Below are positions 21,032-63,164 of a stretch of DNA of 64,000 bases, piece by piece. The stretch comes from an uncultured Candidatus Saccharibacteria bacterium (GTDB lineage Bacteria > Patescibacteriota > Minisyncoccia > Phycocordibacterales > Phycocordibacteraceae), in contig CAYUQB010000001.1 of the NCBI GenBank assembly GCA_964446735.1, positions 380,460 to 444,459 on the forward strand, written 5' to 3'. The position numbers and the translations under genes were made by a program. Positions within the stretch are counted from its first letter, which is position 1. Each line of letters begins with the position of its first letter. The notes below the pieces were generated by a model. That model made no database searches. It had not been told where the DNA came from and saw only the letters and a program-made list of their open reading frames with translations.

Positions 21032-21033
21032 TA

Positions 21034-21609: not shown

Positions 21610-21619
21610 ATGGGATGTG

Positions 21620-23335: not shown

Positions 23336-23360
23336 GCGGATATGATACCGCGAGTATCGC

Positions 23361-24575: not shown

Positions 24576-24602
24576 AAAAAAATTCTAGCACGCAAAAAGC
24601 TC

Positions 24603-24634
24603 GGAGCCGGGTTTCTCGTTCGAGAAACCCGGCT
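24603..24634 (-). terminator. hairpin terminator after small GC-rich membrane ORF
   Basis: 14-bp stem gagccgggtttctc/gagaaacccggctc, then GCTTTTTGCG on the minus strand. Confidence 0.55.
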
Positions 24635-24658
24635 CACGTGCGGCCGATGGAGTGACCG

Positions 24659-24997: not shown

Positions 24998-25086
24998 TCT
25001 CTCTATCCTCGCTGAGTCGCGCGTCCATAGCGAACGTTTTCATGCAACTCCTGTCCGCGTTATACCACTCTCACGCTCGGACGCAA

Positions 25087-26841: not shown

Positions 26842-27353
26842 ATCTATACCAAAAGTATAGCGCGTAACGTGTAACACGCTTGCGATAAAAAGAATAATTG
26901 TGAATCGGAACCCTAGGTTCGCTCTGGTTTCGTTCCAGCAATTTCCAATCGAAAAGTTTTATTGATCCGTGAAACTCGAGCAAGTGCAGAATGTCTCTTC
27001 TGGGTGTCGGCTACTGTATGAAATTGAATAACTTTTTAGCGATGCGCCCAACTACTTGGGGGGAGAACTTACTATCGACTCCTACATTCCGCTACGCGTG
27101 AAATTATTCTTGCTTCAATAATTAATATGAGCGTGAAAGATCTCTTTATACCAGCAGGGATATCGGACTCGTATTAATTTCAAATGGAAGCAGCATGAAA
27201 CGTTTATACACTCAGGACGCGAAGATAAGTTCCGCTCCATCTTGTCTGGATTGACGCCATACCTATATATGGTATCCTTCCGCTATCTGAGATGTCCGCA
27301 CCCGCGGGCATTTCTCTTTAAAAAGGTGCGACAACTGAATAACGCATGGGCTT

Positions 27354-40113: not shown

Positions 40114-41031
40114 CTATTGCTGACGGGAGTGGAACCGTTTATGAATTTCGCGTAAATGTGAGTCGGTAACGTGTGTATAGATCTGAGTAGTATTGATAGA
40201 CGCGTGCCCAAGAAGGGCCTGAACGCTACGTAAATCGGCGCCGTTAGATAAAAGATCGGTGGCGAACACATGACGAAGCGTGTGGGGCGTGACCTTGGTG
40301 GTAATGCCTGCTTTGGCAGCGTACGTCTTAATGTGTCGTTGCACATCTCGGGGGGTAATGCGGTGGAGTCGATTTGGTCGCCCTTCGACAAAAAGAGCTT
40401 CTTCCATGTCTTTGCGTTCTTTTAGGTACTCCATGACCGCAGCTTTCGCAGCAGGCGAGAGAAAGACTACTCGAACTTTCTCACCCTTACCTCGCACGGA
40501 CAGGTCATCGCGGGATAGATCGATATCAGCATTCAAGGCACAAAGCTCTGCGACACGTAGGCCAGTTGAGAAAAGAAGCTCCAATATGGCTTTATCGCGC
40601 AACAACCTAATACGTTTGTCTTGATCTTCTTCCTTCTTCAGCGCGTCCTCTGGAGCACGAAGGAGTCGAGTTAGTTCCTGAGCAGTGACGACGTCGATCT
40701 GTCGTTCGGGGAGTTTTGCAAGTTCAATACGTTCCGGATTTAGGCCCTCAATACCACGCCTACGCAGATACTTGAGGAATGCTCGCAGTGCGATGAGGTA
40801 GTAGTTTTGCGTGCGACGCTTCATGGTCGCATTCCCCGTACCCGGCTGACGATTGAGCCAGAGTCGGAATTCGCGAATTCGATCTTCCGTAATGTCTCCG
40901 ACCTGCTCGATCTTCATTTGATCGAAGAACACTGCAAGGTAGTGGTCGTAGTTTTCGACTGTTTTCACGGCTCGCCCCTTCTCAATCTCGGTGTATTCGA
41001 GAAATTCGCGCTTCATTTGAGCCGCATTCAT
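40114..41031 (-). CDS. xerC: tyrosine site-specific recombinase XerC/XerD family
   Basis: RDKAILELLFSTGLRVAEL, HTLRHVFATDLLSNGADLRSVQALLGHASINTTQIYTHV with catalytic R..HxxR..Y; start set at internal MNAAQMKREF (ORF track opens at 41145). Confidence 0.8.
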   Translation of the reverse strand: MNAAQMKREFLEYTEIEKGRAVKTVENYDHYLAVFFDQMKIEQVGDITEDRIREFRLWLNRQPGTGNATMKRRTQNYYLIALRAFLKYLRRRGIEGLNPERIELAKLPERQIDVVTAQELTRLLRAPEDALKKEEDQDKRIRLLRDKAILELLFSTGLRVAELCALNADIDLSRDDLSVRGKGEKVRVVFLSPAAKAAVMEYLKERKDMEEALFVEGRPNRLHRITPRDVQRHIKTYAAKAGITTKVTPHTLRHVFATDLLSNGADLRSVQALLGHASINTTQIYTHVTDSHLREIHKRFHSRQQ

Positions 41032-41068
41032 AGCAAAAGTATACCAAGCAGAGTGCGCACAATATGGA

Positions 41069-41093
41069 GCTGCCCGGGGAGGACCCGGGCAGC
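41069..41093 (-). terminator. hairpin after GC-rich ORF 41102-41437
   Basis: gctgcccggg-gagga-cccgggcagc. Confidence 0.45.
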
Positions 41094-41101
41094 CACAAGG
41101 T

Positions 41102-41437
41102 TCATTGTGCAGCAACGCGAAGCGCTTGCGGTGCGATGCACTCAACGACCCAACATCCGGCGCCGCATCTCATGAGCGCAACGTGCTCGAACATCAGGTG
41201 CGCTTCCTGCTGAGCAGGGAAGTGCCAGTAGCAGAACTGTTCGTCCTGACACTGCGGTGGTGCAAGGAAGCGGTCGAACCCCGCGGTCTCGGCAACCGGC
41301 ACGAGCACCACAAAGCGGTCGATGTCGCTTTGCAAGCCAGCAAAGTGTCGAGCGGAGAAGTCTGCGACATCCTCTTCGTCGAGGGAGGGGCAGACTTCGC
41401 TCGGACACCAAGAAATTATTCGTACAAAAGTGTCCAT
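41102..41437 (-). CDS. hypothetical Cys-rich protein (GC-rich cassette)
   Basis: ORF 41102-41488, probably starting at MDTFVRIISW; elevated GC; no family recognised. Confidence 0.35.
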   Translation of the reverse strand: MDTFVRIISWCPSEVCPSLDEEDVADFSARHFAGLQSDIDRFVVLVPVAETAGFDRFLAPPQCQDEQFCYWHFPAQQEAHLMFEHVALMRCGAGCWVVECIAPQALRVAAQ

Positions 41438-41916: not shown

Positions 41917-42432
41917 ATGCCTGTAATCAAGCACCCAGCGCAGCGTGTAGGAGTGTTCATCGATACCCAGAACCTCTACCACAGTGCCAAGCATCTCTAT
42001 AAAGCGCGAGTTAATTTCGCGAAAGTTCTCGAAGAAGCAGTAGGGGACCGCGTCCTCGTCCGGGCCATTGCCTATGTAATTTCGACCGAAAGCGGAGAGG
42101 AGTCAGCATTCTTCGAAGCACTTACTAAGATTGGCATCGAGACCAAAGTGAAGGATCTTCAAGTCTTTTCCGATGGCGCCAAGAAGGCTGATTGGGACGT
42201 AGGACTTGCCATCGATGCAGTGAAATTGGCTCCGAAATTGGATACGGTCATTATCGCTTCTGGAGATGGTGACTTCGTCCCACTCATCGAATACCTCGAT
42301 ATGAATGAAGGCTGCCAAGTCGAAGTTATTTCATTCGGCAAGTCATCATCCTCGAAACTGAAGGAGGCGGCGCATGCATTCACTGACATGTGCGAAGACC
42401 CCAAACAATTCCTCATCGGGCATCGCGGATAA
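41917..42432 (+). CDS. NYN-domain (LabA/YacP-like PIN-fold) protein
   Basis: VGVFIDTQNLYHS and IIASGDGDFVPLIEYL, typical NYN acidic residues. Confidence 0.6.
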   Translation: MPVIKHPAQRVGVFIDTQNLYHSAKHLYKARVNFAKVLEEAVGDRVLVRAIAYVISTESGEESAFFEALTKIGIETKVKDLQVFSDGAKKADWDVGLAIDAVKLAPKLDTVIIASGDGDFVPLIEYLDMNEGCQVEVISFGKSSSSKLKEAAHAFTDMCEDPKQFLIGHRG

Positions 42433-44953: not shown

Positions 44954-46054
44954 CTAGCGGCAGAACGGATTCGCCGCCTTGTGAACTTCGAAGTGGAGGT
45001 GGTTACCGGTAGATTTACCAGTAGATCCCACATATCCGATGAGTTCACCCTTACCAACGGTTGCCCCTGCGGCCGTTGCCGTACGTGTCATGTGGGCATA
45101 TAGCGTCTGGGCACCGCTCGCATGGTTGATCACGACGTAATTGCCGTACCCGCCGTTCCACCCACCATTTGCGAGAGAGATGATGACCTTACCAGCTGCA
45201 GATGCATAAATAGGAGTGCCATTCGGAGCAGCGATATCGACACCGTTATTACCGTGACGAGTCTGCGTACAGCGTCCAGCTGGAAGCGGATTGCTGAAGC
45301 CTGAAATCGTCGGGAGCGTTACCGTCTTCTTGGCACCTGGCTTCTTCGTCGGTGTGGGGGCCGCTACCGGTTCGCCGTTCGGGATGATGATCTTTGTCCC
45401 TACAATGAGCGGTTCACCCGAATCAAGGCCGTTATATGAAAGTATGTCCTCGGTACTGCCGCCGTACTTCTTTGCAAGTGATGCGACGGTCTCACCCGAA
45501 CGTACCGTGTGTTCAATACCAGTGACCGGAAGGATGACGAGGGTCTGGCCAGGGGTGAGTTTGCTCTTAGCCGTGAGATTGTTGGCCCAGAGGATGGTAT
45601 TTACTGAAATACCGTTCTTCGCCGCAATGGAAGAGAGCGTATCGCCTGATTCGATGATATAGGTACGGATTTCGCCACCTTCTGCTCGATGCACGATATC
45701 GGCAAGGGTCCCATCTGGACCAGCGTTCGCCATAAGTGCGGAACCTTCGGAAACATATACGCCACTCTCTCCCTTTTCCGGATTCGGATCAGGGTTTAAT
45801 GCAGCGGCAAGGAGCGGGAGGTTACTGCTATGGACGATAGGGGGCTCACCTCCTGACGAAGACGCACGCAGCATAGTAAAAGGCCAAAACGCGTTGGTCG
45901 CGATGGGAAGGGAAAGCAATGAGGCGCCCGCTAGAAGCGCCAAGGTGCCAGTGGCTACCGTGTTCCAATATGCATTCCGACTGCGCGAGCGATTATGAGT
46001 TGAATCGGAAGGTGTAGGTGTGGAAGAAATACGTGGTCGAGGGCGTTCAGGCAA
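44954..46054 (-). CDS. LysM-domain M23 peptidoglycan endopeptidase
   Basis: two LysM repeats (YIIESGDTLSSIAAKNGISV; HTVRSGETVASLAKKYG) and M23 core HMTRTATAAGATVGKGELIGYVGSTGKSTGNHLHFEV. Confidence 0.8.
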   Translation of the reverse strand: MPERPRPRISSTPTPSDSTHNRSRSRNAYWNTVATGTLALLAGASLLSLPIATNAFWPFTMLRASSSGGEPPIVHSSNLPLLAAALNPDPNPEKGESGVYVSEGSALMANAGPDGTLADIVHRAEGGEIRTYIIESGDTLSSIAAKNGISVNTILWANNLTAKSKLTPGQTLVILPVTGIEHTVRSGETVASLAKKYGGSTEDILSYNGLDSGEPLIVGTKIIIPNGEPVAAPTPTKKPGAKKTVTLPTISGFSNPLPAGRCTQTRHGNNGVDIAAPNGTPIYASAAGKVIISLANGGWNGGYGNYVVINHASGAQTLYAHMTRTATAAGATVGKGELIGYVGSTGKSTGNHLHFEVHKAANPFCR

Positions 46055-48154: not shown

Positions 48155-48949
48155 ATGCGCGCGAAGCAGGCACTCGGGCAGAACTTCCTCATGCACCAGG
48201 CGACCGCCGATCGTATTGCCGATGCCGCAGGACTATTGCCCGATGCGACAGTGCTCGAGATCGGACCAGGTACCGGAATCCTCACCCGCGCACTTCTTAG
48301 ACGGGCGGCACGAGTTATTGCAATCGAGACGGATCAAGATCTTATTCCAGGGTTGGAGGAAACATTTGCAGACGAAATCAGAGAGGGGAGACTCGAAGTC
48401 ATTAAAGACGACATACGTTCGTTCGATCTCTCCCGAATTACGAATGGGTATGCCGTAGTCGCAAATATTCCGTACTACATCACCGGTGAAATCATTCGCA
48501 CCCTTCTTTCAGCGTCCCATAAGCCCTCATCAGTGACACTCTTGGTGCAAAAGGAGGTTGCGCAGCGGGTGGCGCGCGAAAAGAAAGAGAGTTTACTTTC
48601 ACTTTCAGTAAAAATATATGGAACTCCTCGTTATGTCTTTACGGTGCCGCGTGGCGCGTTTCGACCAGCTCCTAACGTGGACTCAGCAGTGCTGCACATA
48701 GCAAATATCACCTCTCCGTTTAGAAATAAAGCTGAGGAAGTGCGTTTCTTTGAGATTCTTCATGCAGGCTTTGCACATAAACGAAAACGGTTGGCGAAGA
48801 ATCTTGAAGAATTCGCATCACAAGAACGCGTAATGGAAGCGCTTGAGGCAGCCGGTATTCCGCGTGACGCCCGAGCAGAAGATGTGCCGCTCGCGGCATG
48901 GGGGAAACTTTCGGGGATACTATCGGGACAACATGGGGAAAAGATGTGA
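48155..48949 (+). CDS. rsmA: 16S rRNA (adenine1518/1519-N6)-dimethyltransferase
   Basis: ALGQNFLMHQATADRI...VLEIGPGTGILT...ANIPYYIT. Confidence 0.85.
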   Translation: MRAKQALGQNFLMHQATADRIADAAGLLPDATVLEIGPGTGILTRALLRRAARVIAIETDQDLIPGLEETFADEIREGRLEVIKDDIRSFDLSRITNGYAVVANIPYYITGEIIRTLLSASHKPSSVTLLVQKEVAQRVAREKKESLLSLSVKIYGTPRYVFTVPRGAFRPAPNVDSAVLHIANITSPFRNKAEEVRFFEILHAGFAHKRKRLAKNLEEFASQERVMEALEAAGIPRDARAEDVPLAAWGKLSGILSGQHGEKM

Positions 48950-49018: not shown

Positions 49019-50008
49019 GTGGCGTATTCTAACCGAACCATCGGCATCATCATCGCTTCGGCTATCTCGATAGTCCTTATTATCGGTGCCGTTTTGATCT
49101 CAGGTCCACTTCCATTCAAATGGAATCGGGTGAGCGCCACCTCAACGCATGATCTCCTCGTTTCATATGCATCTAAGGACACGGACGCGGATGGGTTGCC
49201 TGATTGGCAGGAGGCACTCTACGCAACAGACCCGAACGACGCCCACTCGGTTCGGGCTGACATCTTAGACGGGCAGGCCGTTGCCCAAGGATTGGTTGCG
49301 CCGAAGTTTGCTACAGCAACAACGACAACTGACACCACTGCAATACCGGGAGTAGAGAGCGGTCCTGATACCCTGACCGATCAGTTCGCACGTGAGCTTT
49401 TCACACAGTATGTGTCGCAGGCAGGGAATTCAACACCAACTCCCGAGACGATCGCTTCGTTTGTTGAACAGGCAGTTGCGAATCTCACCGCACGCAATTC
49501 AAGCGTAAACGAATTTGATCAGAGTGACGTTAAGACGAGTGGTACCGGAGAGGACGCATTGCTTGTGTACGCTGCACAAATTGAAGGAGTGTTTGCCAAA
49601 AATACAGCTCCATCTGAAAAAAGTGAAATCGAGTATCTCGCCGATGCGGTGCAGAAGAATGACAAGGCGGCACTCAAGGAAGTGAAGCGTATTGGTGCAA
49701 CGTACACCTCGCTCGCAAAAGGGTATGTTGCAACCGCGGTGCCGTCCGAGGCAGTGACCCCTCATCTTGAAGTGGCGAATGCACTCGCCCGTATTGGTAC
49801 CGATATTACCGACTTCTCAATGATGGATACGGATCCGCTTCGTGCCTATTTTGGTCTTGCCAAGTATCAAGAAGACGTCCCGAAGCTTGTGGCGGGTCTG
49901 AAGGCGCTGAATGCCGTGTACACGAGCGAAGGGGTAGTGGTCCCTGAAGGAACTTCCGGATTCTACTTCTTCAGACTCCTTACCCGCTCAGCAACACAAG
50001 AACTATGA
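49019..50008 (+). CDS. membrane-anchored hypothetical protein (first gene of T4SS-like locus)
   Basis: N-terminal TM IGIIIASAISIVLIIGAVLI; DTDADGLPDWQE calcium-binding-like repeat. Confidence 0.4.
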   Translation: MAYSNRTIGIIIASAISIVLIIGAVLISGPLPFKWNRVSATSTHDLLVSYASKDTDADGLPDWQEALYATDPNDAHSVRADILDGQAVAQGLVAPKFATATTTTDTTAIPGVESGPDTLTDQFARELFTQYVSQAGNSTPTPETIASFVEQAVANLTARNSSVNEFDQSDVKTSGTGEDALLVYAAQIEGVFAKNTAPSEKSEIEYLADAVQKNDKAALKEVKRIGATYTSLAKGYVATAVPSEAVTPHLEVANALARIGTDITDFSMMDTDPLRAYFGLAKYQEDVPKLVAGLKALNAVYTSEGVVVPEGTSGFYFFRLLTRSATQEL

Positions 50009-51507
50009 GTTCCCTCCGTAAACCCGTTGCGCTATTCCTTTGTGGACTCATAGTCGCAGGCGGTGCGGTTGGACTTGCTCCTCGACCGGCGCATGCGCAG
50101 TTGTTCGGAGCTTCCCTCGTCCTCGACCCGGTAAACCTTGTGCAGAATACAATCTCGGCGGTCGCGAACGCGAAGACCCTTCTCAATCCTATCTTCTATC
50201 GCATTGCACAGGCAGCCATTCAATCGATGGTGCGCAGTACCGTTAACTGGATAAACAATGGATTCGAAGGTTCCCCGGCATTCGCTACGGATCTTAAATA
50301 CACCCTCCTGGATGCAGCCGACCGGGAAGCGGAACGGTTCGTGCGACAGATTGGAAGCGACCTATCAATAAGCTCTCCGTTTCAGAATAGGATCGCCCAG
50401 AACGTACTTGCTGCATACTACCTGTCCACCAGTCGAGATGGGTTCGCACTCGCTAATCCCTATACGCTCAACCGGGTGAGCGAAGACGATGCGGCATTCT
50501 TGCGTGGTGATTTTACGAAGGGCGGGTTCTCGGCATGGTTCGCCGCCACGTTGAATCTTCCGAATACGCCTCGTGGCTTTAATGAACTAGCTCGTTCAGC
50601 GTTCTATGATCGAGTCGCCGATGTTAAAGGTCAGATTCACGAAGAAGTTGGGTGGGGGGATGGCTTTCTGTCCTGGCGTAAGTGTGACAAAGAGGGAACC
50701 AAACTCGTCGACAATTCGAAGACTTCCACTATTACGACACTTGATGGCAAGCAAGAGCAGCTTAAGACACTCAACCTGCAGGAAAAGAAAACCTGTCTTG
50801 AGAGTCACATTGAAACCCCCGGCTCAATTATTTCCTCAGCCGGGGCCAAGGCTCTCGGTCTCGGAGCAGATTCACTGATCCAAGCGGATAGTTTCGACGA
50901 AATCGTAAATGCGCTTCTTGGACAACTCATGAACCAGGTACTTGGTGGGGGAGGAGGGCTTCGTGGGGTATCACGTCCGTCAGCAGCACGGGGCGGCGGA
51001 ACCTACTTCGATCAACAAACAAGTACGACCGCGAGTGCTGGAGTCTCAGTCGTAAGTTCATTCACTCAGATACTCGACGAACAAGCGACACAAATCCAAA
51101 TATATCTGCGTAATTGGCAGACCATTAGTGCTGCTGCAGTGGCTGCGAAAGCTGCACTTGAAGCAAGCACCTGCACCGCTAACAAAGACTCAATTATTAG
51201 TACTCAGATAGAACCAGTTATTACTCGCGCAGCGACAATTGCAGGAAGTATACCCAGCGTACTTTCAGAGATTGAACGTATTCGCTCGTCAGCGTTGAGT
51301 GTCGTTACGGACGATACCACTGAGCAACTCACAGTGCTCCAGCAAGCAAATGCTGACTACCAAAATCTGCTATCTAATACCGCATTCCCAAGCGTGAGTG
51401 ATATGACATATGCGATAGAGCAGTCGCAAGACACCGGCAACGAAACACCCGCATCACTCCTTACGGAACTCAACCGCATTGCAGCACAAGCCCGGTGCAG
51501 TACCTAA
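50005..51507 (+). CDS. secreted hypothetical protein
   Basis: signal peptide ...GLAPRPAHA|QLF; 500 aa; 4-bp overlap with upstream gene. Confidence 0.4.
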   Translation: MSSLRKPVALFLCGLIVAGGAVGLAPRPAHAQLFGASLVLDPVNLVQNTISAVANAKTLLNPIFYRIAQAAIQSMVRSTVNWINNGFEGSPAFATDLKYTLLDAADREAERFVRQIGSDLSISSPFQNRIAQNVLAAYYLSTSRDGFALANPYTLNRVSEDDAAFLRGDFTKGGFSAWFAATLNLPNTPRGFNELARSAFYDRVADVKGQIHEEVGWGDGFLSWRKCDKEGTKLVDNSKTSTITTLDGKQEQLKTLNLQEKKTCLESHIETPGSIISSAGAKALGLGADSLIQADSFDEIVNALLGQLMNQVLGGGGGLRGVSRPSAARGGGTYFDQQTSTTASAGVSVVSSFTQILDEQATQIQIYLRNWQTISAAAVAAKAALEASTCTANKDSIISTQIEPVITRAATIAGSIPSVLSEIERIRSSALSVVTDDTTEQLTVLQQANADYQNLLSNTAFPSVSDMTYAIEQSQDTGNETPASLLTELNRIAAQARCST

Positions 51508-54500: not shown

Positions 54501-54559
54501 CGAAGACGAAACGCTCGAAAGCAACAACTGACGATGGTAGCGACGACGGCACAACATGA
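51512..54559 (+). CDS. giant polytopic membrane protein, candidate VirB6/TrbL-like channel component
   Basis: signal/anchor, ~270-aa extracytoplasmic domain, 6-7 TM helices, ~450-aa charged C-terminal domain; ORF opens at 51479, start set at MATYLHII. Confidence 0.4.
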   Translation: MATYLHIIRSLGLGILIAVSLLLFAAPSANAADPAIAIPNGKTLKPNGQVCKAINPLTGMQDGSVALVLETGGFCQLQFTDGTQLTVEFSAGKQTQTGTLRDANGKTIGTPETKSWIEGAQEAVDQAAAATTAAEKSAVTAARAAVAAPSTGARNTPLSANEATALYKKVEYLSSRNLITIAERDKLNSIIFAAGTGGASQAQLDSVRKMGTAVDTLNANVGRSADVNTAAKEAASAQQETAAEAEKSCNIVSFNLGTCLQSIMWAIIKKIGLFFLYLAAFFAGFAGFLFNWIIYITVFQFGNLIGNNAGMLAAWGVLRDIGNLVLLFGFIFMGLSTILSLPGNEFTARRALPALIIFAILMNFSLFAAEAVIDTSNALGTTLYRQAANGMCGEGESMLTCVTQKGIGGRIMQITGIASIFSLDPDKEDVIANDDLGGAIEVIGLTIFAAVTAFVFLAAVFMLIARAIMLAFLMAVSPIGFAGMAIPPLHRYASMWWEQLLKQSFFAPIYILLVLISIKFMEGIIVALNAAAGAGSTTEVSTLASAFSRSGITNVSMVVNFMLITGFMLGAVIIAKSMGAAGASGATRMAGAVVFGGMARASNFGIGGASRLARLGVQRTLGKSDSAFVRGIGSGASAFLKGGEKLNTDLRGVAGKRGADLFGAPAQKASYDDVQNKIQEVREGIRANQATFDRDASLQRLRSEVGRKGGLSPESERFLATLSADEIAHDHDLEHKIGDLAPLLSASQFENLTRSDKVPQKLKDEARRERYAELKDAILNSRKGGIRKMTPKDLEQFFLSPIYAELKTENEEALKEFVTLMNGGQYDTLRASTVLTNAQRSEIKRWRDDDRFNFGEFNDLRSGKQVEFKQAISMDGNRKPLYVDPSTGRVTEDVTSVKATRIDRTLDDLNTADRAKLEDKILAREEVFTRLAPEDFAAIQRADKLEPPQRRAVSAHLNAVFNEKSARGDRFRAYRDTMSDNAWKSMKAFYQLSTDKAKTKRSKATTDDGSDDGTT

Positions 54560-55332
54560 TTCCCGACGAAACTGCCATTGATAAAGCCCTAGAGACCGCA
54601 CCGCAACCCGTGTCTGACTTCATCGTGGGTGGCCATCTCGCCAACGCGGTCGTCGCCATTGCGCATGAACACCAACTTCATGTCGATACAATCGGAACGC
54701 TCGCAGAGCTTTCTCGTAACATGCTCCTCGGACTTTCAAGCCCTGCCGAAACACTGGGCGAGCTCATTGTTGCAGGTGTGGACACTGCAACTGCACAAAC
54801 AGTGCTCGCAGACCTTAACGTGAAGGTGTTTATGCCAGTTCGAGACGCGGTGAAGACTGGTACTAATCCGTTCGCACTCGATCGGGATACAGATGAGACG
54901 CCCGAGGTACGCACGGCAGCTGTCGCACCCACACCTGCACCAGCGTCGTCCGCAAGGCCTTCCTCCCCGCCCCTCGTACCACCGCTAGAGCTTGTCGAAC
55001 GTCCGGTACCTGCACCTATTGTTCCGCCAGTGTCCGTAAGTCGGCCTGTCGAAGTTCCAGTGCCGAACGTCGTTGCACCCAACGTGGCAGCCTCAGGTCT
55101 GCCGGACGAAGCGGTACGCACGATGGCATCGGATATGCAGGCAGTGAAAGAACACCGCACGCCCACCCCAATAGTTCCTTCCGTGGTGATTCCAACGACA
55201 CAAGTACAGACAATAGCAGCACCGCCACTTCCTCCGACGCCACCTCGCACCGCACCTCCTCCGGCAAATCTTCCTGGTGCAGCAGCGGTAAAGCCATACA
55301 GTGTAGATCCGTATCGTGAACCGATAGAGTAG
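54556..55332 (+). CDS. hypothetical Pro-rich protein
   Basis: 258 aa; PTPAPASSARPSSPPLVPPLE and PPLPPTPPRTAPPPANLP tracts; translationally coupled to upstream gene. Confidence 0.35.
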   Translation: MIPDETAIDKALETAPQPVSDFIVGGHLANAVVAIAHEHQLHVDTIGTLAELSRNMLLGLSSPAETLGELIVAGVDTATAQTVLADLNVKVFMPVRDAVKTGTNPFALDRDTDETPEVRTAAVAPTPAPASSARPSSPPLVPPLELVERPVPAPIVPPVSVSRPVEVPVPNVVAPNVAASGLPDEAVRTMASDMQAVKEHRTPTPIVPSVVIPTTQVQTIAAPPLPPTPPRTAPPPANLPGAAAVKPYSVDPYREPIE

Positions 55333-55378: not shown

Positions 55379-55801
55379 ATGGAGTACCAGGTACCGCAGT
55401 TCATCGAGGTAGAGGACAAGATTTTCGGTCCATTCACCCTAAAACAGTTTATCTACCTTGCTGGCGGAGGCGGTCTTTCAGCAGTCATTCTCCTGTATGT
55501 GCGTCCACTCTTTCTCGCATTCGTTCTTGTTGCACCTATCGCAGCGCTCTCTGCCGCACTTGCATTCTATAGAGTAAACAACAAGTCTTTTGTTGAGGTG
55601 CTCGAAGCAGCGTTCAACTATTACACCAAGGGACGTCTCTACCTGTGGCGTAAGGAGAAAAAGGAAGAGTCTGCTTCGGTTCCCCAGGCACCGACACCAG
55701 TAGTTCCCGAACGTCAAAAACTTGGCCTGTCCCAGCGCAAGCTTCAGGATCTGGCATGGTCGCTGGATATTAAGGACGCAAGTTCGAACCAGAATTCATA
55801 A
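55379..55801 (+). CDS. PrgI/VirB3-like small T4SS membrane protein
   Basis: MEYQVPQFIEVEDKIFGPFTLKQFIYLAGGGG + two TM helices; pattern shared by PrgI/TcpE-type proteins that precede VirB4. Confidence 0.55.
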   Translation: MEYQVPQFIEVEDKIFGPFTLKQFIYLAGGGGLSAVILLYVRPLFLAFVLVAPIAALSAALAFYRVNNKSFVEVLEAAFNYYTKGRLYLWRKEKKEESASVPQAPTPVVPERQKLGLSQRKLQDLAWSLDIKDASSNQNS

Positions 55802-55804
55802 GAT

Positions 55805-56443
55805 ATGCCTACTCCCCAAGCAGCGCAGGCATTCGTGCCCGTCAAAGAAGTCCGCAACGGTGTCGTTATCCTCAAGGAGGGAGGGTACCGGGGTATCCTC
55901 ATGTGCTCAGCAATGAACTTCGCGCTTAAATCTGAACCGGAGCAGGCAGCCATTATCGGAGGGTTCCAATCCCTCCTCAATACGCTCGATTTCTCAATCG
56001 AAATGGTCGTGCACTCTCGCCGTATGGACATTCGTCCATATCTCGCACTCCTTGAGGAGCGACTCGCGGCTCAACAGAGTGAACTTATGCGCATTCAACT
56101 ACGTGAGTACATTAGCTTCATTCGAGGATTTACCGAGAGTACCGACATCATGACCAAGCTCTTCTATGTAGTCGTGCCATATACCCCAGCGGTTGCAGTG
56201 AAGGTAAGTCAGGCATTCCCACTTCCAGGACGAAAGAAGGAAGGCGCTCAGGGAGCCACTGAATCATTCGAAGAGGATCGGGTGCAGCTTGAGCAACGCA
56301 TGCTTCTAGTTGCAAGCGGACTTTCGGCCGCAGGTATTCGCGCGGTTGCACTTGATACAGAAGAAATCATCGAGCTTCTATACCGTTCCTTCAACATTGG
56401 GCAAACCGAGACGCCAATACGTCTCGCTGAAGCCGGCATCTAA
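55805..56443 (+). CDS. VirB4-family ATPase, N-terminal portion (separate reading frame)
   Basis: VPVKEVRNGVVILKEGGYRGILMCSAMNFALKSEPEQAAIIGGFQSLLNT matches the N-terminal domain of Gram-positive VirB4 homologs (Tn916 Orf16/PrgJ/TcpF style). Confidence 0.6.
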   Translation: MPTPQAAQAFVPVKEVRNGVVILKEGGYRGILMCSAMNFALKSEPEQAAIIGGFQSLLNTLDFSIEMVVHSRRMDIRPYLALLEERLAAQQSELMRIQLREYISFIRGFTESTDIMTKLFYVVVPYTPAVAVKVSQAFPLPGRKKEGAQGATESFEEDRVQLEQRMLLVASGLSAAGIRAVALDTEEIIELLYRSFNIGQTETPIRLAEAGI

Positions 56444-56444
56444 T

Positions 56445-58265
56445 ATGGCACTCCTCGACTTCCTCTCCCGCTCAAAGAAAAATGAAGTACCGACTATGAC
56501 ACCGGTGCTTCCAAAGGATATTTACTCCCAGGGGGTGCTCGAGCTCGCTGACGCCATTGCACCAGCAGCACTTCAGGTAGGTTCAAAGGACATCGAGCTT
56601 GGTGAGAAGGTATCGCGTTCCTTCTACACGATCTCGTACCCTCGATTCCTCACTGATGGTTGGTTCATGGAGATCATTAATTTGGCACGAGAATTTGATA
56701 TTGGTATCTTTGTGCACCCAATCGAGACCGGACAAGCACTTCGTAACTTCCAAAAAAAGGTTGCCGAGGTCCAAAGCCAGATTAGTGAGCGAGAAGACAA
56801 AGGGTTGGTGCGTGATCCGCTTCTTGATACGGCGTACCAGGACCTCGAGAACCTGCGCGATCAACTTCAACAAGCACAAGAGCGCCTTTTTGATGTTGGG
56901 CTCTATATGACACTGTACGAAAAAAACCGCGAACTCCTGGACCGGGTGGAAGGGGAAGTGCGTGGAATTCTCGATGCCAAGCTGGTGTATACCAAACCGG
57001 CACTGTTCCAACAAGAGCAGGGGTTCCGCTCAACACTTCCGCTTGCGCTCGATGAGCTCGAGGTCCACTCGAAACTGAATTCATCCCCACTTTCGTCCGT
57101 CTTTCCCTTTGTCTCGTTCGATCTCACGAGCGACCGCGGCATTCTATTTGGCATTAACCGCCACAACTCCTCACTCATTCTGTTCGATCGATTCTCCCTT
57201 GAGAACTACAACTCAGTAGTGTTCGCAAAGTCGGGATCCGGAAAATCCTATGCGGTGAAACTGGAGATCCTCCGATCCTTGATGTTCGATACGGATGTCA
57301 TTGTTATCGATCCTGAGCGTGAATATGAGTACTTGGCGGAAGCGACTGGCGGAAGGAACTTCAACATTTCACTCTCAAGCGACCACCACATTAATCCGTT
57401 TGATCTCCCGCCGGTGCGGGAAGGGGAGGAGCCTGGTGATGTGCTCCGTGCAAATATCATTAACCTGGTCGGCCTCTTCCGACTCATGCTCGGAGGACTT
57501 TCTCCTGAAGAGGATGCGATTGTCGACCTTGCCATCACCGAAACATACGCGCTCAAAGACATCACGCCTGATCGTGATTTCACTGGCATGGAACCTCCGC
57601 TTCTTTCTGATTTCGAGGTTGTGCTCGCTGGTATGGAGGGTAGCGATTCTCTCGTACAACGACTCTCCAAGTACACCCAAGGAACGTGGTCAGGGTTTAT
57701 TAATCGCCCCACCAATATCGATATTAATAAGCAGTTCGTGGTGTTCTCCGTGCGTGATATGGAAGACGAGTTGAAGCCGGTGGCAATGTACATCGTGACG
57801 CATCACATTTGGAACTCCGTCCGAAGAGAATTGAAGAAACGACTCTTGGTGATCGATGAGGCATGGTGGATGATGAAATCACCTGACACCGCATCGTTCG
57901 TTGCAATGCTTGCTAAACGCGGACGCAAGTACTACCTCGGCCTCGCAACCATCACGCAGGATGTGGAAGACTTCCTTCATTCAGAGTATGGCGGCACCAT
58001 CATCAAGAACTCGTCGATTCAACTACTTCTCAAACAGTCTCCGACTGCAATCGATATGCTCAAGAGCGCGTTCAATCTTACCGAGCAAGAGAAATTCCTG
58101 TTGCTTGAGTCAGGAGTAGGCGAGGGGCTCTTCTTTGCAGGTCAGAAACACGTCGCCATAAAAATAGTCGCTTCCTACACCGAGGATCAGATCATCACCT
58201 CAGATCCCTCACAGCTGCTTGCTATCCGACGTGAGAAGGAACGCCTGCAGGGTCAGGGAGGTTAG
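56445..58265 (+). CDS. VirB4-family conjugation/T4SS ATPase, C-terminal ATPase portion
   Basis: Walker A VVFAKSGSGKSY, Walker B LLVIDEAWWMM, RKYYLGLATITQDVEDF; start overlaps upstream stop in ATCTAATATGG (frame +2). Confidence 0.8.
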   Translation: MALLDFLSRSKKNEVPTMTPVLPKDIYSQGVLELADAIAPAALQVGSKDIELGEKVSRSFYTISYPRFLTDGWFMEIINLAREFDIGIFVHPIETGQALRNFQKKVAEVQSQISEREDKGLVRDPLLDTAYQDLENLRDQLQQAQERLFDVGLYMTLYEKNRELLDRVEGEVRGILDAKLVYTKPALFQQEQGFRSTLPLALDELEVHSKLNSSPLSSVFPFVSFDLTSDRGILFGINRHNSSLILFDRFSLENYNSVVFAKSGSGKSYAVKLEILRSLMFDTDVIVIDPEREYEYLAEATGGRNFNISLSSDHHINPFDLPPVREGEEPGDVLRANIINLVGLFRLMLGGLSPEEDAIVDLAITETYALKDITPDRDFTGMEPPLLSDFEVVLAGMEGSDSLVQRLSKYTQGTWSGFINRPTNIDINKQFVVFSVRDMEDELKPVAMYIVTHHIWNSVRRELKKRLLVIDEAWWMMKSPDTASFVAMLAKRGRKYYLGLATITQDVEDFLHSEYGGTIIKNSSIQLLLKQSPTAIDMLKSAFNLTEQEKFLLLESGVGEGLFFAGQKHVAIKIVASYTEDQIITSDPSQLLAIRREKERLQGQGG

Positions 58266-58274
58266 TAGCGAGAT

Positions 58275-58757
58275 ATGGCAACGAGGGAAGCCGCGAAGGT
58301 AGCGTACCGAGTGAGCGGCATCCAGGAACTGTTACTTAAACTCACCGCGGTAGTTCTCGACGGTGTTGGGTTCTTGCTCATGCTCACTGTTATCGGCGAA
58401 GTGGGTACTGAGGTCATTGGTCTTACGGGTGATGCGCTCTTCTTTATTTGGTTCTGGATGCTTGGCGCAAAGTTCTTGACCGGTCAGGCGGGAAGGAAAA
58501 TAGTCACGTTAGCTGGAAACGCGCTTGTTGAGGCTGTTCCATTTGCTAATGGCGTCTATCCTGGCTTTTCCATTGCAGTATGGCGACTCGTAAAGATTAT
58601 GAAAGAAGAGGACGAAGAGGAAGCACGGAACGCTGCTCGGAAGGCACGACAGGAGGACGAAGCTCGTATTCGACGCGTGCAAGCGATTCTTGCTGAGCGC
58701 GCACGACGCCAGGCCGCCAATACCAATACCCAGGAACCGGAAAGACAGGCCGCGTGA
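58275..58757 (+). CDS. hypothetical membrane protein with charged coiled-coil tail
   Basis: 2-3 TM helices then EEDEEEARNAARKARQEDEARIRR. Confidence 0.35.
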   Translation: MATREAAKVAYRVSGIQELLLKLTAVVLDGVGFLLMLTVIGEVGTEVIGLTGDALFFIWFWMLGAKFLTGQAGRKIVTLAGNALVEAVPFANGVYPGFSIAVWRLVKIMKEEDEEEARNAARKARQEDEARIRRVQAILAERARRQAANTNTQEPERQAA

Positions 58758-59744: not shown

Positions 59745-60710
59745 ATGATGCGCACGCTACTTTTCATCTCGCTTCTGCTTGCTCCCGCACTGGTATTTGC
59801 GCAGGGCACAGACTTTGTACCCTTGCTTCCATCGCTTCCCGGTATTGATACGCTTCAAACGCAAGATTCGCTCGCTCCATTCCTCTCTCAAATCTACAAG
59901 ATCTGTATCGGGCTTGCTGCCGTACTTGCGGTGCTCCAGATCATGCGGGCAGGAATCATGTACATGGGAGGCGACAGTATCACGGAGAAAAAGGAGGCGC
60001 GGGGTCTTATCGGCGCAGCGCTTGCGGGACTGTTGTTGGTTCTTTCACCTGTTATTGTGTTCAGCCTCATTAATCCGCAGATCCTTGAGCTCGATATTGG
60101 CGGCGACCGCTTGCGGTCTAACGTCGAGAGTCCGGGTCCTACAAGCTATACGGTTATTCCGGCAACTACCGCCGAGGAATGTAAAAAGAAGGGAGGCACC
60201 CCTACAGGAAACCCTCCCAACATTTTGTGCAAAGCACCCACCACCGAAGCGACCACTGCTGCGTCGTATGGTAATTGCAGCGATTACACAAACTTCCTGG
60301 TTACGACCGTTGATGGGAATTGTAACAACGCTGCAAATAACGACACTACGTACACCCGCATTCAGGTAAACAACCGATGTTGCTATGGGGGCAGCATCCA
60401 AACTGGATTCAAATGCTGTGCGGTGAACAAGAAAGACGTGACGGCACCACTCCCGGATGCAACAAAGCCCATAACTGTTATGGAATACGTTGACGGTACT
60501 ACCAAAAACTACGGACCACTCTCTGCCGCTGATAAAGAATCGTTCAGTAAATTCTCTGCCGCCTGTACCGCAGCACGAGGCAAGGTCATAAGAACGCAAA
60601 AAACCATTCGCGACTGTACTGCTGAGGAAGAAAAACTTATGACCGATGTCCCCGCTGAACGCCGACAATACATTGGATGCAAGACGGTGGATGTAGGATG
60701 TGCCTTATAG
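59745..60710 (+). CDS. VirB2/TrbC-like pilin with Cys-rich C-terminal extension
   Basis: signal peptide MMRTLLFISLLLAPALVFA|QG, then TM hairpin (IYKICIGLAAVLAVLQIMRAGIMYM - loop - LIGAALAGLLLVLSPVIVFSLI) typical of T4SS pilins, then ~200 aa with 12 Cys. Confidence 0.45.
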   Translation: MMRTLLFISLLLAPALVFAQGTDFVPLLPSLPGIDTLQTQDSLAPFLSQIYKICIGLAAVLAVLQIMRAGIMYMGGDSITEKKEARGLIGAALAGLLLVLSPVIVFSLINPQILELDIGGDRLRSNVESPGPTSYTVIPATTAEECKKKGGTPTGNPPNILCKAPTTEATTAASYGNCSDYTNFLVTTVDGNCNNAANNDTTYTRIQVNNRCCYGGSIQTGFKCCAVNKKDVTAPLPDATKPITVMEYVDGTTKNYGPLSAADKESFSKFSAACTAARGKVIRTQKTIRDCTAEEEKLMTDVPAERRQYIGCKTVDVGCAL

Positions 60711-60712
60711 CT

Positions 60713-61951
60713 ATGCGACGAATACTTCTCATCATCGGGGCGGTCATCATCCTCATCGGGATTGGAATTGGTATTTACTTCCTCTTCTTCCGAGGTGGCC
60801 CAGGACTGGTCATAGGTCCAGGCGATTTCCCAGGGTCAGGAAATACCGACGGCGAGCCAGAAGATGGGGTAGTCGGGGTGCAGGACATTGGGGTCGCACT
60901 CCCTGGTGCTGGTACGGAGATCGCACCACGGTTCCTGCGAATTTCGGATCGACCAGTTGCGTTCGGTGCGGCAGCGGTCTTTGTGCCGGGAACGACTCCG
61001 GTAGCAACCACGTCAGCAAGCAGCACCGTCGTAGCTCGGGATCCTGATGTGCGCGTGATGTATCTCGAACGCGAGAGTGGAAACGTCTACGCCTTTGAAG
61101 TCCACGCCCGCACACAGACTCGACGCTCAAACAAAACACTTCCTGGTATACAGGAAGCGAACTGGCTTTCTGATGGCTCCCTTGCGTTTGTGCGATTTCT
61201 TCAAGGAACAGGAGATGATGAACGTGTTGATACCTATGCACTCCCGGCTGATGGAGAAAATGGCTATTTCCTTGAACAGAACCTCGCCCAAGTCCTGGTG
61301 AAGGGAACAAGTACTTTGGTGACCGTACGCTCAACAACCGAAGGGTCTCAAGCGTCTGTTTCTACACCCACTGGCGGCGGTCTGCGCACACTTTTCTCGA
61401 CCCCACTTTCCTCAATTCTGATCGGCTACTCGGGTGCAAATTTCGTTGTGTGGACTAAGGGGTCTGCGCAAGCCAATAGCTACGCCTTCTTGGTTGATGC
61501 ACGAACCGGTGCGTTCACGCGTGCACTTGGTCCTTTGAAAGGATTTTCCGTGCTTCCAAGCCCAAGCGGCCGCTACCTTCTGTATAGCTACCTAGACCGA
61601 GGGAAGCTCGCGCTCGCAGCACTCGATCTCTCCACTCGAATTGCCACTCGGCTACCGCTTGCCACACTCCCAGAGAAATGTGCGTGGACCAGCGACGACC
61701 GAGCATTGTACTGTGGTGTCCCAACAGCGCTTCCTGGAACACTTCCTGATGACTGGTATCAAGGCGCCGTGCATTTTACCGACCGCATATGGAAAATCGA
61801 CTTGGGAAGTCGAGTGGCGACACTCGTCATAGATCCGAAGGAAGCAGGGGAGTTGGATGTTGACGCGGTTGGTCTTACGCTTGACCGCACGAATGACGTT
61901 CTGGTCTTCAAGAATCGACGTGACCACCTGCTCTACACCTACGACCTCTAG
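60713..61951 (+). CDS. membrane-anchored hypothetical protein (possible beta-propeller)
   Basis: MRRILLIIGAVIILIGIGIGIYFLFF anchor; ORF opens 60677. Confidence 0.4.
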   Translation: MRRILLIIGAVIILIGIGIGIYFLFFRGGPGLVIGPGDFPGSGNTDGEPEDGVVGVQDIGVALPGAGTEIAPRFLRISDRPVAFGAAAVFVPGTTPVATTSASSTVVARDPDVRVMYLERESGNVYAFEVHARTQTRRSNKTLPGIQEANWLSDGSLAFVRFLQGTGDDERVDTYALPADGENGYFLEQNLAQVLVKGTSTLVTVRSTTEGSQASVSTPTGGGLRTLFSTPLSSILIGYSGANFVVWTKGSAQANSYAFLVDARTGAFTRALGPLKGFSVLPSPSGRYLLYSYLDRGKLALAALDLSTRIATRLPLATLPEKCAWTSDDRALYCGVPTALPGTLPDDWYQGAVHFTDRIWKIDLGSRVATLVIDPKEAGELDVDAVGLTLDRTNDVLVFKNRRDHLLYTYDL

Positions 61952-62673
61952 ACCGTAGCGGGCGTTGGAGTGTTTGTGCGTCGCACAATGAATTCCTGGA
62001 AGATAGAAACGAGACTGCCGGTAATAAAGTAGAGGGCAATGGCGCCCGATGTGTACGCAGCAACGCCCACAATCAATGGGAGAATGTAGCGCATTTGGAG
62101 CGCCATTGCGCGTGCAATGTCAGCTCCTGGTCCTTCAACTTCTGCTGAAGGTGGCGGTACCGGAATGGCATACCAAGAATGAGCGAGCTGTGCGAATGCG
62201 GCAATGATCGCGAGGACAATGCTGTGACCGGTGATTGAAGCAAGTCCGAGAAATGCCACCGAGACAGCGTCCGGTACCGTAACAAACGGATACAGAATGC
62301 TTGGATCAATACCGGGCAATGACTTACTGCTAAATACCCAATACAGGCCAATAATCACCGGAATTTGAATAAGGAGGGGAAGGAGGCTGGCAAACGGATG
62401 CACCCCGTATTTCTTATACAGCGCCATCATTTCCTTCATCTGACGCTCTTGGTCGTTCTTGAATTTCTTGCGTACTTCCTTCAATTCAGGGTCCATTGCC
62501 TTCATGGCCTTTTGCGTGCGTGCGGCACTCATGGAGAGGGGCCAGAGCACAAACCGCACTATCAGCGTTGCCAGAATGACGGCAATCCCGAGGTCGCCCC
62601 CGGGGACTACATCAATCAATAAAACCAACAGGTTGTAGATCGGGGTATAGAGAACCGTGTGGAAGAATCCCAT
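61948..62673 (-). CDS. yidC: membrane protein insertase YidC/Oxa1 (short form)
   Basis: MGFFHTVLYTPIYNLL..., 241 aa, 5 TM; gene order with rnpA/rpmH. Confidence 0.85.
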   Translation of the reverse strand: MGFFHTVLYTPIYNLLVLLIDVVPGGDLGIAVILATLIVRFVLWPLSMSAARTQKAMKAMDPELKEVRKKFKNDQERQMKEMMALYKKYGVHPFASLLPLLIQIPVIIGLYWVFSSKSLPGIDPSILYPFVTVPDAVSVAFLGLASITGHSIVLAIIAAFAQLAHSWYAIPVPPPSAEVEGPGADIARAMALQMRYILPLIVGVAAYTSGAIALYFITGSLVSIFQEFIVRRTNTPTPATV

Positions 62674-62684
62674 ATCGCTCTACC

Positions 62685-63002
62685 TTATACTGTCGGCAAC
62701 GAAAGGAGAAGTCGATTGAGCTCGTCGGCAATCTTTTGGTAGGGAAGGGAAGGACCTCCGGCACGCGCATAGATAACGAATGAACGACCGGAACGTATAT
62801 GGGGTCGAATGGCAGTAAGTATGCGCCGCTTTAGTTGGTGCCGCGCAACAGACGTACGGGCAACCTTCTTTGAAACAACGGCGGCGGCCCTCCCTTCGAT
62901 TGAAGGCATAACAGTTACAGAAAAATGCTCAGACGCGGCACGATGGCCGCGTCCGGCGGTAGCGAAAGCGGCTCTAGAAAGACGCTTTGCTTTAGGAAGC
63001 AT
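62685..63002 (-). CDS. rnpA: ribonuclease P protein component
   Basis: MLPKAKRLSRAAFATAG...; basic 105 aa; position between rpmH and yidC. Confidence 0.8.
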   Translation of the reverse strand: MLPKAKRLSRAAFATAGRGHRAASEHFSVTVMPSIEGRAAAVVSKKVARTSVARHQLKRRILTAIRPHIRSGRSFVIYARAGGPSLPYQKIADELNRLLLSLPTV

Positions 63003-63004
63003 GG

Positions 63005-63148
63005 TTAGCCCGAAACGGAGAGGCTGGTGCGGCCTTTTCGGCGGCGGCGCGTGAGGACATTCTTGCCACCCGGAGTTGCAGAACGAGCTCGGAAACCGTG
63101 GGTAGTGGCGCGCTTACGCTTCTTGGGTTGATAGGTTCGCTTAGGCAT
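63005..63148 (-). CDS. rpmH: 50S ribosomal protein L34
   Basis: [47 protein letters not shown] (47 aa); found by manual translation, below ORF-track cutoff. Confidence 0.85.
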
Positions 63149-63155
63149 ATGATTG

Positions 63156-63164
63156 TTGTCCACA
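63156..63164. promoter_or_regulatory. candidate DnaA box (TTGTCCACA) in rpmH-dnaA intergenic region
   Basis: 8/9 match to TTATCCACA; partial TCCACAGA also at ~63275-63283 (reverse); putative oriC/dnaA promoter region. Confidence 0.35.

Follow-up and report, generated by a model that had tools for sequence, protein, structure and literature searches.

How does a type IV secretion system (T4SS) pilin come to carry some 200 cysteine-rich residues beyond its second hydrophobic helix, and what might they be for? The question is raised by the gene at 59745-60710 of a 64,000-nucleotide stretch of contig CAYUQB010000001.1 (hereafter the window), from an uncultured member of the Patescibacteria, or candidate phyla radiation (CPR). 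A first-pass annotation had described its product as a VirB2/TrbC-like pilin fused to a disulfide-bonded extracellular module, a tip or an adhesin, on a conjugative-type pilus. The reading that we favour, with moderate confidence, is that its product is the one VirB2-like pilin of a Gram-positive-type (mating-pair-formation FATA-like, MPF-FATA-like) T4SS that Paceibacteria-type Patescibacteria encode on the chromosome near the origin, and that a disulfide-locked, variable binding domain is displayed on each of its subunits.

The gene is one unbroken forward-strand open reading frame (ORF) of 321 codons, which opens with a double start codon (ATG-ATG) and closes with a stop codon at 60708-60710. 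The TAG of the upstream gene ends 1 nt before it and the next gene begins 2 nt after its stop; the pilin gene is a member of a tightly packed operon. Public assemblies contain an identical 321-amino-acid (aa) protein (P0001), which supports the start at 59745, and the homolog alignments open at the same methionine. A longer version from a GTG at 59622 would overlap the upstream gene and is without support, and two ORFs in other frames (59779-60369, forward; 60045-60668, reverse) were considered mechanical. Nor is the tail the product of a separate overlapping gene, which is ruled out by the continuous frame and by the fused architecture shared by more than 140 homologs.

Translation, hydropathy and AlphaFold models bear out the proposed succession of a signal peptide, a transmembrane (TM) hairpin and a tail of ~200 residues with 12 cysteines; the segments are listed in Table 1. 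The cleavage site of the signal peptide (VFA/QG) was read from the sequence and not taken from a dedicated predictor. Between leader and helix 1, F24, P26, L27, P32 and L47 are invariant or near-invariant (family consensus FVPLTxxPG). Helix 1 carries Cys54 and an invariant AVLQ motif, with G56, A58, Q65 and G70 also invariant. In the loop that follows, Y73, M74, D77 and S78 are invariant and G75, G76, T80, E81, K82 and K83 are kept in at least 90% of the sequences, while the invariant positions of helix 2 are G95, L96, L98, L100, P102, F106 and N110. The computed masses are ~32 kDa for the mature protein, ~11 kDa for the core and ~21 kDa for the ectodomain.

The hydrophilic tail is 205 aa long, with ~190 residues beyond the disordered linker. 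Its 12 cysteines (5.9%) lie at positions 146, 162, 178, 193, 212, 213, 224, 225, 274, 291, 312 and 319, the thirteenth of the protein being Cys54 within helix 1. Fifteen other window genes that were examined have 0-1.0% Cys (0-0.6% in most), and the enrichment in the tail is far beyond chance. Subdomain A consists of a six-Cys core, C178...C193...CC212/213...CC224/225, preceded by an add-on that contains C146, C162 and a CxxxGGT motif. The first-pass annotation needs amending in three details: a further Cys lies in helix 1, two CC pairs are present but there is no C-x-C pair, and of the three residues said to abound in the tail only Thr is clearly enriched (28 of 196 positions), Asn and Gly being merely frequent (14 of 196 each).

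To which family does the N-terminal part belong? At least 271 relatives were found by homology search at E<=1e-3, and the subset counts below are drawn from the matches listed; among these, almost all relatives come from metagenome-assembled genomes of Parcubacteria, Paceibacterota, Kaiserbacteria and other Patescibacteria. In the window protein the Pfam model TrbC (PF04956) covers aa 3-98 (E=4.8e-4, 20.7 bits against a cut-off of 27.9) and T4SS_pilin (PF18895) covers aa 40-105 (E=7.9e-3, 16.7 bits against 26.6), both matches spanning both helices in register. When homologs among the matches listed were scanned singly with Pfam (E<=1e-3), PF18895 was found in 85 of 113 and PF04956 in 58 of 113; these close homologs are 50-75% identical in the core and many carry precomputed PF18895 or PF04956 assignments. 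The source databases often label these proteins 'pilin' or 'VirB2 component'. A Pfam match to Adeno_Penton_B (E=2.7e-4), below its cut-off and present in one of 113 members, was dismissed as spurious.

Hydropathy, AlphaFold2 (AF2) and family conservation agree on the TrbC/VirB2 layout of a leader, two hydrophobic helices and a short charged loop. The other hallmark of these pilins, a small mature subunit of ~7 kDa that ends after helix 2, is absent, since the mature protein has ~32 kDa and 211 residues after helix 2. Among relatives the core length is fixed at 93-100 aa and the loop has no insertions. Family-level Pfam matches, topology and position in a T4SS operon thus uphold the earlier assignment of the N-terminal ~115 aa to a VirB2/TrbC-type T4SS pilin core. 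Judged by its sequence, the protein is a member of the Patescibacteria VirB2-like pilin family and a remote relative only of VirB2/TrbC.

The extension had been taken for an unusual, one-off fusion, but it is the rule in the Paceibacteria-type subfamily. Essentially all of the 144 relatives with a locatable helix 2 are extended, by 76-345 aa (median 188 aa, ~5.9% Cys). The number of Cys in the extension is even in 141 of these 144 (binomial p ~4e-38), and 105 contain a CC-x7-11-CC motif. The tail as a whole is common to 16 homologs with 12 or 14 Cys each, and in the alignment of 17 sequences, where identity over the region is only ~29%, 11 of its 12 Cys columns do not vary. We searched for the Cys-rich domain alone, as had been suggested, by running a tail profile exhaustively against 1.84 billion representative proteins. 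This search returned 51 matches. The pilin core is present in 49 of them and missing from two, one an 85-aa fragment and one a weak match of repetitive sequence. The Cys-rich domain is almost confined to these pilins. In a word-indexed search the tail alone found only itself and a 15-sequence tail alignment found six proteins, a yield limited by the word index.

The extension is modular. Its core module, C...C...CC...CC (C178-C225; profile positions ~55-115), is common to most relatives. Subdomain B is separable, as indicated by independent profile matches to positions 121-203 in P0132, P0135 and P0146, and in P0137 a subdomain-B homolog lies N-terminal to the pilin core. Extra Cys-rich inserts with 4 or 8 Cys occur between signal peptide and core in P0011, P0085, P0122, P0127, P0137, P0138 and P0146, and in P0015 and P0033 the Cys core is followed by DUF4329 where the window protein has its distal module. 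Modules seem to be exchanged at the C-terminus of the pilin. Added Cys modules occur solely at the C-terminus or between leader and helix 1; because core and loop have no insertions, modules are added solely at the two ends that the predicted topology places outside the membrane. Base composition gives no support to the idea that the tail was acquired recently: its GC content is 0.50, that of the core 0.53 and that of the neighbouring genes 0.51-0.55.

The topology is, from sequence, N-out/C-out, because the protein has one signal peptide and two TM helices, and such a hairpin would leave the C-terminal ~200 residues outside the membrane. The conserved Cys, their even number in 141 of 144 relatives and this topology sustain, as a prediction, the earlier proposal of an extracellular, disulfide-bonded tail. 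Structure prediction adds detail. The full-length AlphaFold model (17 sequences) is mediocre, with a pLDDT (predicted local distance difference test) of 68, although two long helices are visible; the linker at aa 116-133 falls below 50. Modelled alone (29 sequences), the ectodomain reaches a pLDDT of 85.8 with 117 residues at or above 90, and shows a beta-rich first subdomain, a Pro-rich linker and an alpha/beta second subdomain ordered strand-strand-helix-strand-helix-strand. From the invariant Cys, the even parity and this confident AF2 model we infer that about six disulfides lock the two modules. The region aa 125-321 had no significant sequence-profile or fold match in Pfam, NCBIfam, PDB or BFVD, and nothing meaningful was found among PDB sequences with family and tail profiles or with those of the two neighbouring proteins.

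While the scaffold of the ectodomain is fixed, its surface is not. Mean identity is 66% in the core and 29% in the ectodomain (24% without the Cys columns), against 51% and 62% in the two neighbouring proteins, and this difference points to an ectodomain surface under diversifying pressure. Apart from Cys, the invariant residues of the domain are Gly only, plus one Leu in the linker, and the ectodomain alignments contain no conserved catalytic-type residues. Host binding or evasion would be the natural reading of such a pattern in an obligate epibiont, and the ectodomain probably contacts the host.

Is the domain restricted to the tip, as first proposed, or carried by all subunits? A hidden Markov model (HMM) of the core gives one match in the window and one in each related 16-kb locus (45 species-level loci), and in each of these 45 loci the match carries a Cys-rich extension. 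No other Pfam-detectable pilin occurs in the T4SS cluster. The protein is most likely the sole pilin of its T4SS. A tip module is unlikely because neither the window nor any of the 45 related loci has a second detectable pilin gene, and with a sole pilin gene the domain would sit on every subunit. Conjugative-type pilus and adhesin are likewise tentative descriptions. Pfam scans of ~47 window ORFs, all those of at least 450 aa among them, detected no relaxase and no VirD4/TraG-type type IV coupling protein, and the literature suggests a non-conjugative role for the Patescibacteria T4SS (PMC12102498, PMC10633639).

Taken together, these observations suggest the following mechanism. The precursor would be exported by Sec and its signal peptide cut after VFA, as read from the sequence. 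The two hydrophobic helices would enter the membrane as a hairpin, N-out and C-out, whose invariant GGDSxTEKKEA loop lies in the cytoplasm, and the C-terminal ~200 residues would fold outside the membrane into two modules with about six disulfides. By homology, a VirB4/VirB3/VirB6 machine may then extract the core and build a short pilus or stalk from it. Conjugative pili of known structure have a ~22 Å lumen lined by the loop between the helices, and a ~90 Å exterior on which the termini lie, close enough to be joined in cyclic pilins (PMC12037004). By analogy, the loop YMGGDSITEKKEAR would face the lumen of an assembled pilus, and the ectodomain would most likely be outside on every subunit, not only at the tip, presented on a flexible ~25-residue linker as a 'decorated' pilus. 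With its fixed Cys/Gly scaffold and fast-diverging surface, the domain could bind a ligand or the host surface and thereby set or track host specificity in an epibiotic lifestyle.

Several points weigh against this reading. The window pilin alone scores under both Pfam gathering cut-offs. Its family profile had no match at E<=10 among PDB sequences, solved conjugative pilins included, and a Foldseek search of the full model against PDB returned no pilin and nothing below E=0.8. When the core profile was compared by hhalign with four genuine VirB2/TrbC proteins from Ti-type plasmids, the probability was 10% (P=0.003, 49 columns in register). Because of these three results the link to classical VirB2/TrbC is, by sequence comparison, a remote one; of the relation first claimed for the N-terminal helices, the family-level Pfam part stands, PDB and Foldseek lend it nothing and hhalign is weak. 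The window shows neither a DsbA, VKOR or thioredoxin-like oxidase nor any real gene with CxxC. No T4SS filament has been reported for any Patescibacterium in the literature searched, and one review treats pili in these bacteria only as a 'potential'. Filament formation and adhesion are both inferred. Finally, a 21-kDa domain per subunit would crowd an F-like lattice: with F-like parameters we estimate ~7 nm² per subunit at the wall and ~12 nm² at a radius of 7.3 nm, for a cross-section of ~10 nm², and by this estimate of our own the domain has room only at ~25-30 Å from the wall. Such an off-wall, or a radial, arrangement would be compatible with a linker of ~25 residues and a domain made of two modules.

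In a first alternative, the hairpin would never form an extended filament but stay in the membrane, or in a short wall stalk, as a receptor or channel part that anchors a host-sensing or host-binding domain and docks it to the T4SS. We consider this unlikely, although it is the most substantial of the alternatives. To the lack of reported T4SS filaments it can add that the thin filaments of one CPR parasite are the different, immunoglobulin (Ig)-fold Pam pilus, and that a bulky 21-kDa domain per subunit would argue against tight VirB2-type packing. Yet the core, with its packing loop and helix faces, is 66% identical and fixed at 93-100 aa, which exceeds the need of a simple anchor, and the gene is the only pilin-like one of its operon. 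The proposal differs from a decorated pilus solely in the degree of polymerisation.

The steric difficulty would be removed in a pro-pilin whose tail is cleaved off after export, either released as a secreted factor or effector or serving as a chaperone that blocks early polymerisation, so that the pilus consists of the core only. C-terminal trimming is known for TrbC. TrhA loses 5 C-terminal residues and cyclises (PMC12037004), and in the window protein the conserved post-TM motif and the disordered linker behind it (aa 111-134) could hold a processing site. This remains improbable in our view. Known trimming removes 4-31 residues and not a folded domain of 200 aa, and beyond L123 the family alignments show a linker of varying length and sequence, without a conserved cleavage motif. 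The 17 neighbouring proteins scanned include no TraF or signal-peptidase-like family, and scans of the operon proteins detected no protease of another family. The N-terminal Cys-rich inserts of the relatives would moreover need a second, different cleavage.

More improbable still is a minor or tip pilin that caps, as an adhesin, a shaft built from a short major pilin encoded elsewhere. The window covers only 64 kb of a ~517-kb contig, and divergent VirB2 paralogs, which share ~25% identity in the arrays of other CPR classes (PMC12102498), could escape the HMM. One candidate is an unannotated 112-aa ORF (24659-24997, reverse strand) with three hydrophobic segments; it lies between the pilC-like and pilB-like genes of a type IV pilus (T4P) cluster, and Pfam finds nothing in it, TrbC and T4SS_pilin included. 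Opposed to this alternative, 45 species-level genomes have one pilin-core match per 16-kb locus, each with the Cys-rich extension, and in none of these loci does a second, tail-less copy of the core adjoin. Pilin arrays, as published, occur mainly in Microgenomatia and Saccharimonadia rather than in Paceibacteria (PMC12102498).

That the protein is no pilin at all, but an unrelated exoprotein on a generic anchor resembling TrbC/VirB2 by composition, is very improbable indeed: the scores under the Pfam thresholds, the lack of PDB sequence or fold matches to pilins, the weak hhalign result and the proneness of hydrophobic hairpins to spurious profile matches stand against two independent pilin models that match full length in register, PF18895 matches in 85 of 113 relatives (among the matches listed), a T4SS-operon position fixed in 47 loci, an invariant, charged loop, a fixed core length and published surveys that count the family as VirB2-like (PMC12102498).

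How does a pilin with a binding domain on every subunit compare with known systems? Its nearest counterparts are the VirB2-like pilins described in Patescibacteria (PF18895; array of Ca. Southlakia epibionticum; Quinonero-Coronel et al. 2025). The window protein shares with them the signal peptide, the helical hairpin and the charged loop, and a place next to VirB4, TrsD, PrgI and VirB6 of a monoderm-type T4SS near the replication origin. A nearby relaxase or coupling protein was found in neither case, the window scan covering ~47 ORFs. Unlike the pilins as those papers describe them it has, together with its Paceibacteria-type subfamily, an ectodomain of 76-345 aa that is predicted to be disulfide-rich, and unlike the pilin array of Southlakia epibionticum, which is essential (PMC10633639), the window-type gene is single-copy.

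With the classical conjugative pilins VirB2 (T pilus), TrbC (RP4), TraA (F) and TrhA (R27), the protein has in common a cleaved leader, two hydrophobic helices, a short charged loop, the need for a VirB4/VirB3/VirB6 machine and a weak Pfam TrbC match. Its A/Q leader junction also resembles that of VirB2, which we take to be cleaved at A/Q. Classical pilins differ in belonging to diderm systems and in having mature subunits of ~7 kDa that end right after helix 2; the VirB2 precursors that we compared have 107-121 aa, and mature TrhA has 74 aa (PMC12037004). Some of them are cyclised head-to-tail (PMC12037004), which would be impossible with a 200-aa tail attached.

Contact with the target cell is the presumed task of the T4SS tip proteins VirB5, TraC and CagL of diderms and of the wall-anchored, PrgB-type adhesins of Gram-positive bacteria, which in this respect resemble the ectodomain. 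These are separate proteins, located at the tip or anchored by sortase, whereas the candidate binding domain of the window protein is covalently part of the pilin. The window protein has no LPXTG motif and no Pfam match to T4SS adhesins, and a survey did not find PrgB-like adhesins in Patescibacteria (PMC12102498).

An exposed, variable, disulfide-stabilised C-terminal part is also a feature of the type IV pilins of T4P and type II secretion systems (T2SS), with their D-region and minor pilins with appended domains; in T4P it serves binding and varies among strains. Fold and machinery are unrelated, however, and an identity as type IV pilin was rejected, the window protein having a classical AxA Sec leader and two TM helices where type IV pilins have a class III leader (G/FxxxE) and a single TM helix. 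The Pam pili of CPR bacteria are, similarly, CPR-specific surface appendages implicated in host contact. Pam pilins have an Ig fold, donor-strand exchange and chaperone-usher-like factors, with no membrane hairpin and no T4SS link (bioRxiv 10.64898/2026.03.03.709456); given this different architecture, a relation to Pam was also set aside.

VirB2-like pilins in Patescibacteria were thus known already, and what is new is a VirB2-type pilin carrying a clade-specific, disulfide-rich, modular ectodomain. Unlike every structurally characterised T4SS pilin of its kind, it carries a fast-evolving, Cys-rich domain of ~200 residues. No mention of appended or Cys-rich domains on a Patescibacteria pilin, or on any VirB2-family pilin, was found in the literature searched. 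The survey PMC12102498 calls these pilins VirB2-like without mentioning extra domains and uses the word 'cysteine' once, about VirB1; its supplement lists VirB2 matches without lengths or domain notes.

Host recognition and exploitation by the ultrasmall CPR/Patescibacteria are largely unexplained, and the T4SS is the only secretion machine of theirs for which an essential role in epibiotic growth has been demonstrated. The Patescibacteria T4SS was already held to be exceptional because its machine is of the Gram-positive type while its pilins are VirB2-like. Across one major clade, these pilins also carry an ectodomain with conserved scaffold and variable surface, and are not minimal 7-kDa subunits. 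If displayed on a filament, it would make the first VirB2-family pilus with a globular domain per subunit and challenge packing models. If the domain binds the host, it would provide an expressible ~21-kDa probe with which to find out on which hosts uncultured Paceibacteria live, and its diversity may serve as a marker of host range. A further question is by what means such minimal genomes achieve the oxidation of 6-10 disulfides in each subunit. Tentatively, and with less confidence than in the reading for the window protein itself, we extend the proposal to a large Paceibacteria-type CPR clade. Its T4SS would possibly form a single-pilin filament with a disulfide-knotted ectodomain of ~10-35 kDa and undescribed fold on every subunit, a 'bottle-brush' conjugative-type pilus in a monoderm, and this modular, fast-evolving ectodomain (C-C-CC-CC core, swappable modules at either exposed end) would determine host recognition in these obligate epibionts.

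Table 1. Segments of the Cys-rich pilin and neighbouring genes of its operon (window coordinates).
Feature	Coordinates	Strand	Basis or remarks
321-aa VirB2-like T4SS pilin with C-terminal Cys-rich ectodomain (whole gene)	59745..60710	+	ORF, translation
Putative Sec-type signal peptide, aa 1-19 (MMRTLLFISLLLAPALVFA/QG; ALVFA junction; -3/-1 = V/A)	59745..59801	+	Hydropathy; AxA/Q consensus kept across 113 homologs
Mature N-terminal segment, predicted extracytoplasmic, aa 20-47, net charge -3	59802..59885	+	F24-x-P26 and P32 conserved
Hydrophobic helix 1 (TM1), aa 48-72	59886..59960	+	Hydropathy; AF2 helix 43-75, pLDDT ~80
Charged inter-helix loop, aa 73-86 (YMGGDSITEKKEAR), predicted cytoplasmic in the membrane form	59961..60002	+	Best-conserved part of the family alignment
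Hydrophobic helix 2 (TM2), aa 87-110	60003..60074	+	Hydropathy peak 2.6; AF2 helix 79-109
Post-TM segment (PQILELDIGGDRL), then variable linker, aa 111-134	60075..60146	+	I113, L114, L116 and L123 invariant
Cys-rich subdomain A, aa 135-228, 8 Cys	60147..60428	+	Alignments; AF2 beta-rich, pLDDT mostly 85-90
Lys/Pro-rich inter-subdomain linker, aa 229-242 (KKDVTAPLPDATKP)	60429..60470	+	Sequence; no secondary structure in AF2; profile matches split here
Subdomain B, alpha/beta, aa 243-321	60471..60707	+	AF2 pLDDT 89-97; 4 invariant Cys (274, 291, 312, 319)
VirB6/TrbL-like polytopic membrane protein, 1026 aa	51479..54559	+	Pfam TrbL E=6e-5, just under cut-off
PrgI (VirB3-like)	55379..55801	+	Pfam PrgI E=1.6e-10; syntenic in 36/47 loci
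TraC-like/TrsD-like protein, 212 aa	55805..56443	+	Weak NCBIfam TrsD and VirB4 N-terminal matches; PF26593 TraC-like on identical gene call
VirB4-type ATPase, 606 aa	56445..58265	+	Pfam P-loop_TraG 8e-24, AAA_10, DUF87
Membrane protein with charged C-terminal tail, 160 aa, no family	58275..58757	+	Ortholog in 26/47 loci
Secreted protein directly upstream of the pilin, 322 aa	58775..59743	+	47/47 loci; 51% mean column identity
N-terminally anchored protein directly downstream, 412 aa	60713..61951	+	47/47 loci; 62% mean column identity

The operon (Table 1) has the layout of a Patescibacteria MPF-FATA-like system, with VirB4 and TrsD, PrgI/VirB3, VirB6 and VirB2-like genes close to the origin. 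A VirB6/TrbL-like gene lies upstream of the pilin in 35 of 47 related loci, and VirB4 ~3.3 kb upstream in 38 of 47. VirB4 is split (55805-58265, forward), a TraC-like/TrsD-like homolog of its N-terminal domain being encoded directly before the ATPase as published for Patescibacteria T4SS. The operon is preceded by ksgA (48155-48949) and followed by yidC, rnpA and rpmH on the opposite strand (61948-63163); in the syntenic related loci L003 and L004, dnaA and dnaN directly follow (with yidC and rnpA). An origin-proximal, MPF-FATA-like T4SS with ksgA, rnpA and a LysM/M23 peptidase nearby matches the published description for Patescibacteria (PMC12102498), and its counterpart in Southlakia epibionticum is essential for epibiotic growth (PMC10633639).

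Both proteins that flank the pilin are far better conserved than its ectodomain. Seven of 30 orthologs of the 322-aa protein match the cadherin-like beta-sandwich PF12733 (best E=2.7e-6). The 412-aa protein has no Pfam or PDB match; C323 and C334 are invariant in it, and its C-terminal third has an invariant run of Trp, Asp, Pro and Gly. The two are candidate pilus-assembly or wall-spanning partners. Operon genes of 329 and 500 aa (49019-51507, forward) and a Pro-rich one of 258 aa (54556-55332, forward) have no Pfam or NCBIfam family; all are syntenic in L003 and L004, the Pro-rich gene occurs in 32 of 47 loci, and the three are counted as T4SS-associated components. A few kb from the operon, a protein with LysM and Peptidase_M23 domains (44954-46054, reverse) is a possible substitute for the cell-wall hydrolase VirB1, and a 2025 survey reports M23/LysM domains on VirB1 homologs (PMC12102498).

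Elsewhere in the window, a T4P/T2SS-like cluster (19610-26877, reverse) comprises a PilB-like ATPase (25087-26877; T2SSE E=4e-124), a PilC-like platform protein (23361-24575), a 571-aa protein with CarboxypepD_reg/SpaA-like Ig domains (21620-23335), a 473-aa protein without family and a 201-aa protein (21034-21639) with the prepilin-like N-terminus GLTLIEVMVLL. The genome therefore has a T4P system separate from the T4SS pilin. A tyrosine recombinase (40114-41145, reverse), XerC/D-like with Phage_integrase and SAM-like N domains, lies near an NYN-domain protein (41917-42432) and is probably a housekeeping Xer rather than part of a mobile element.

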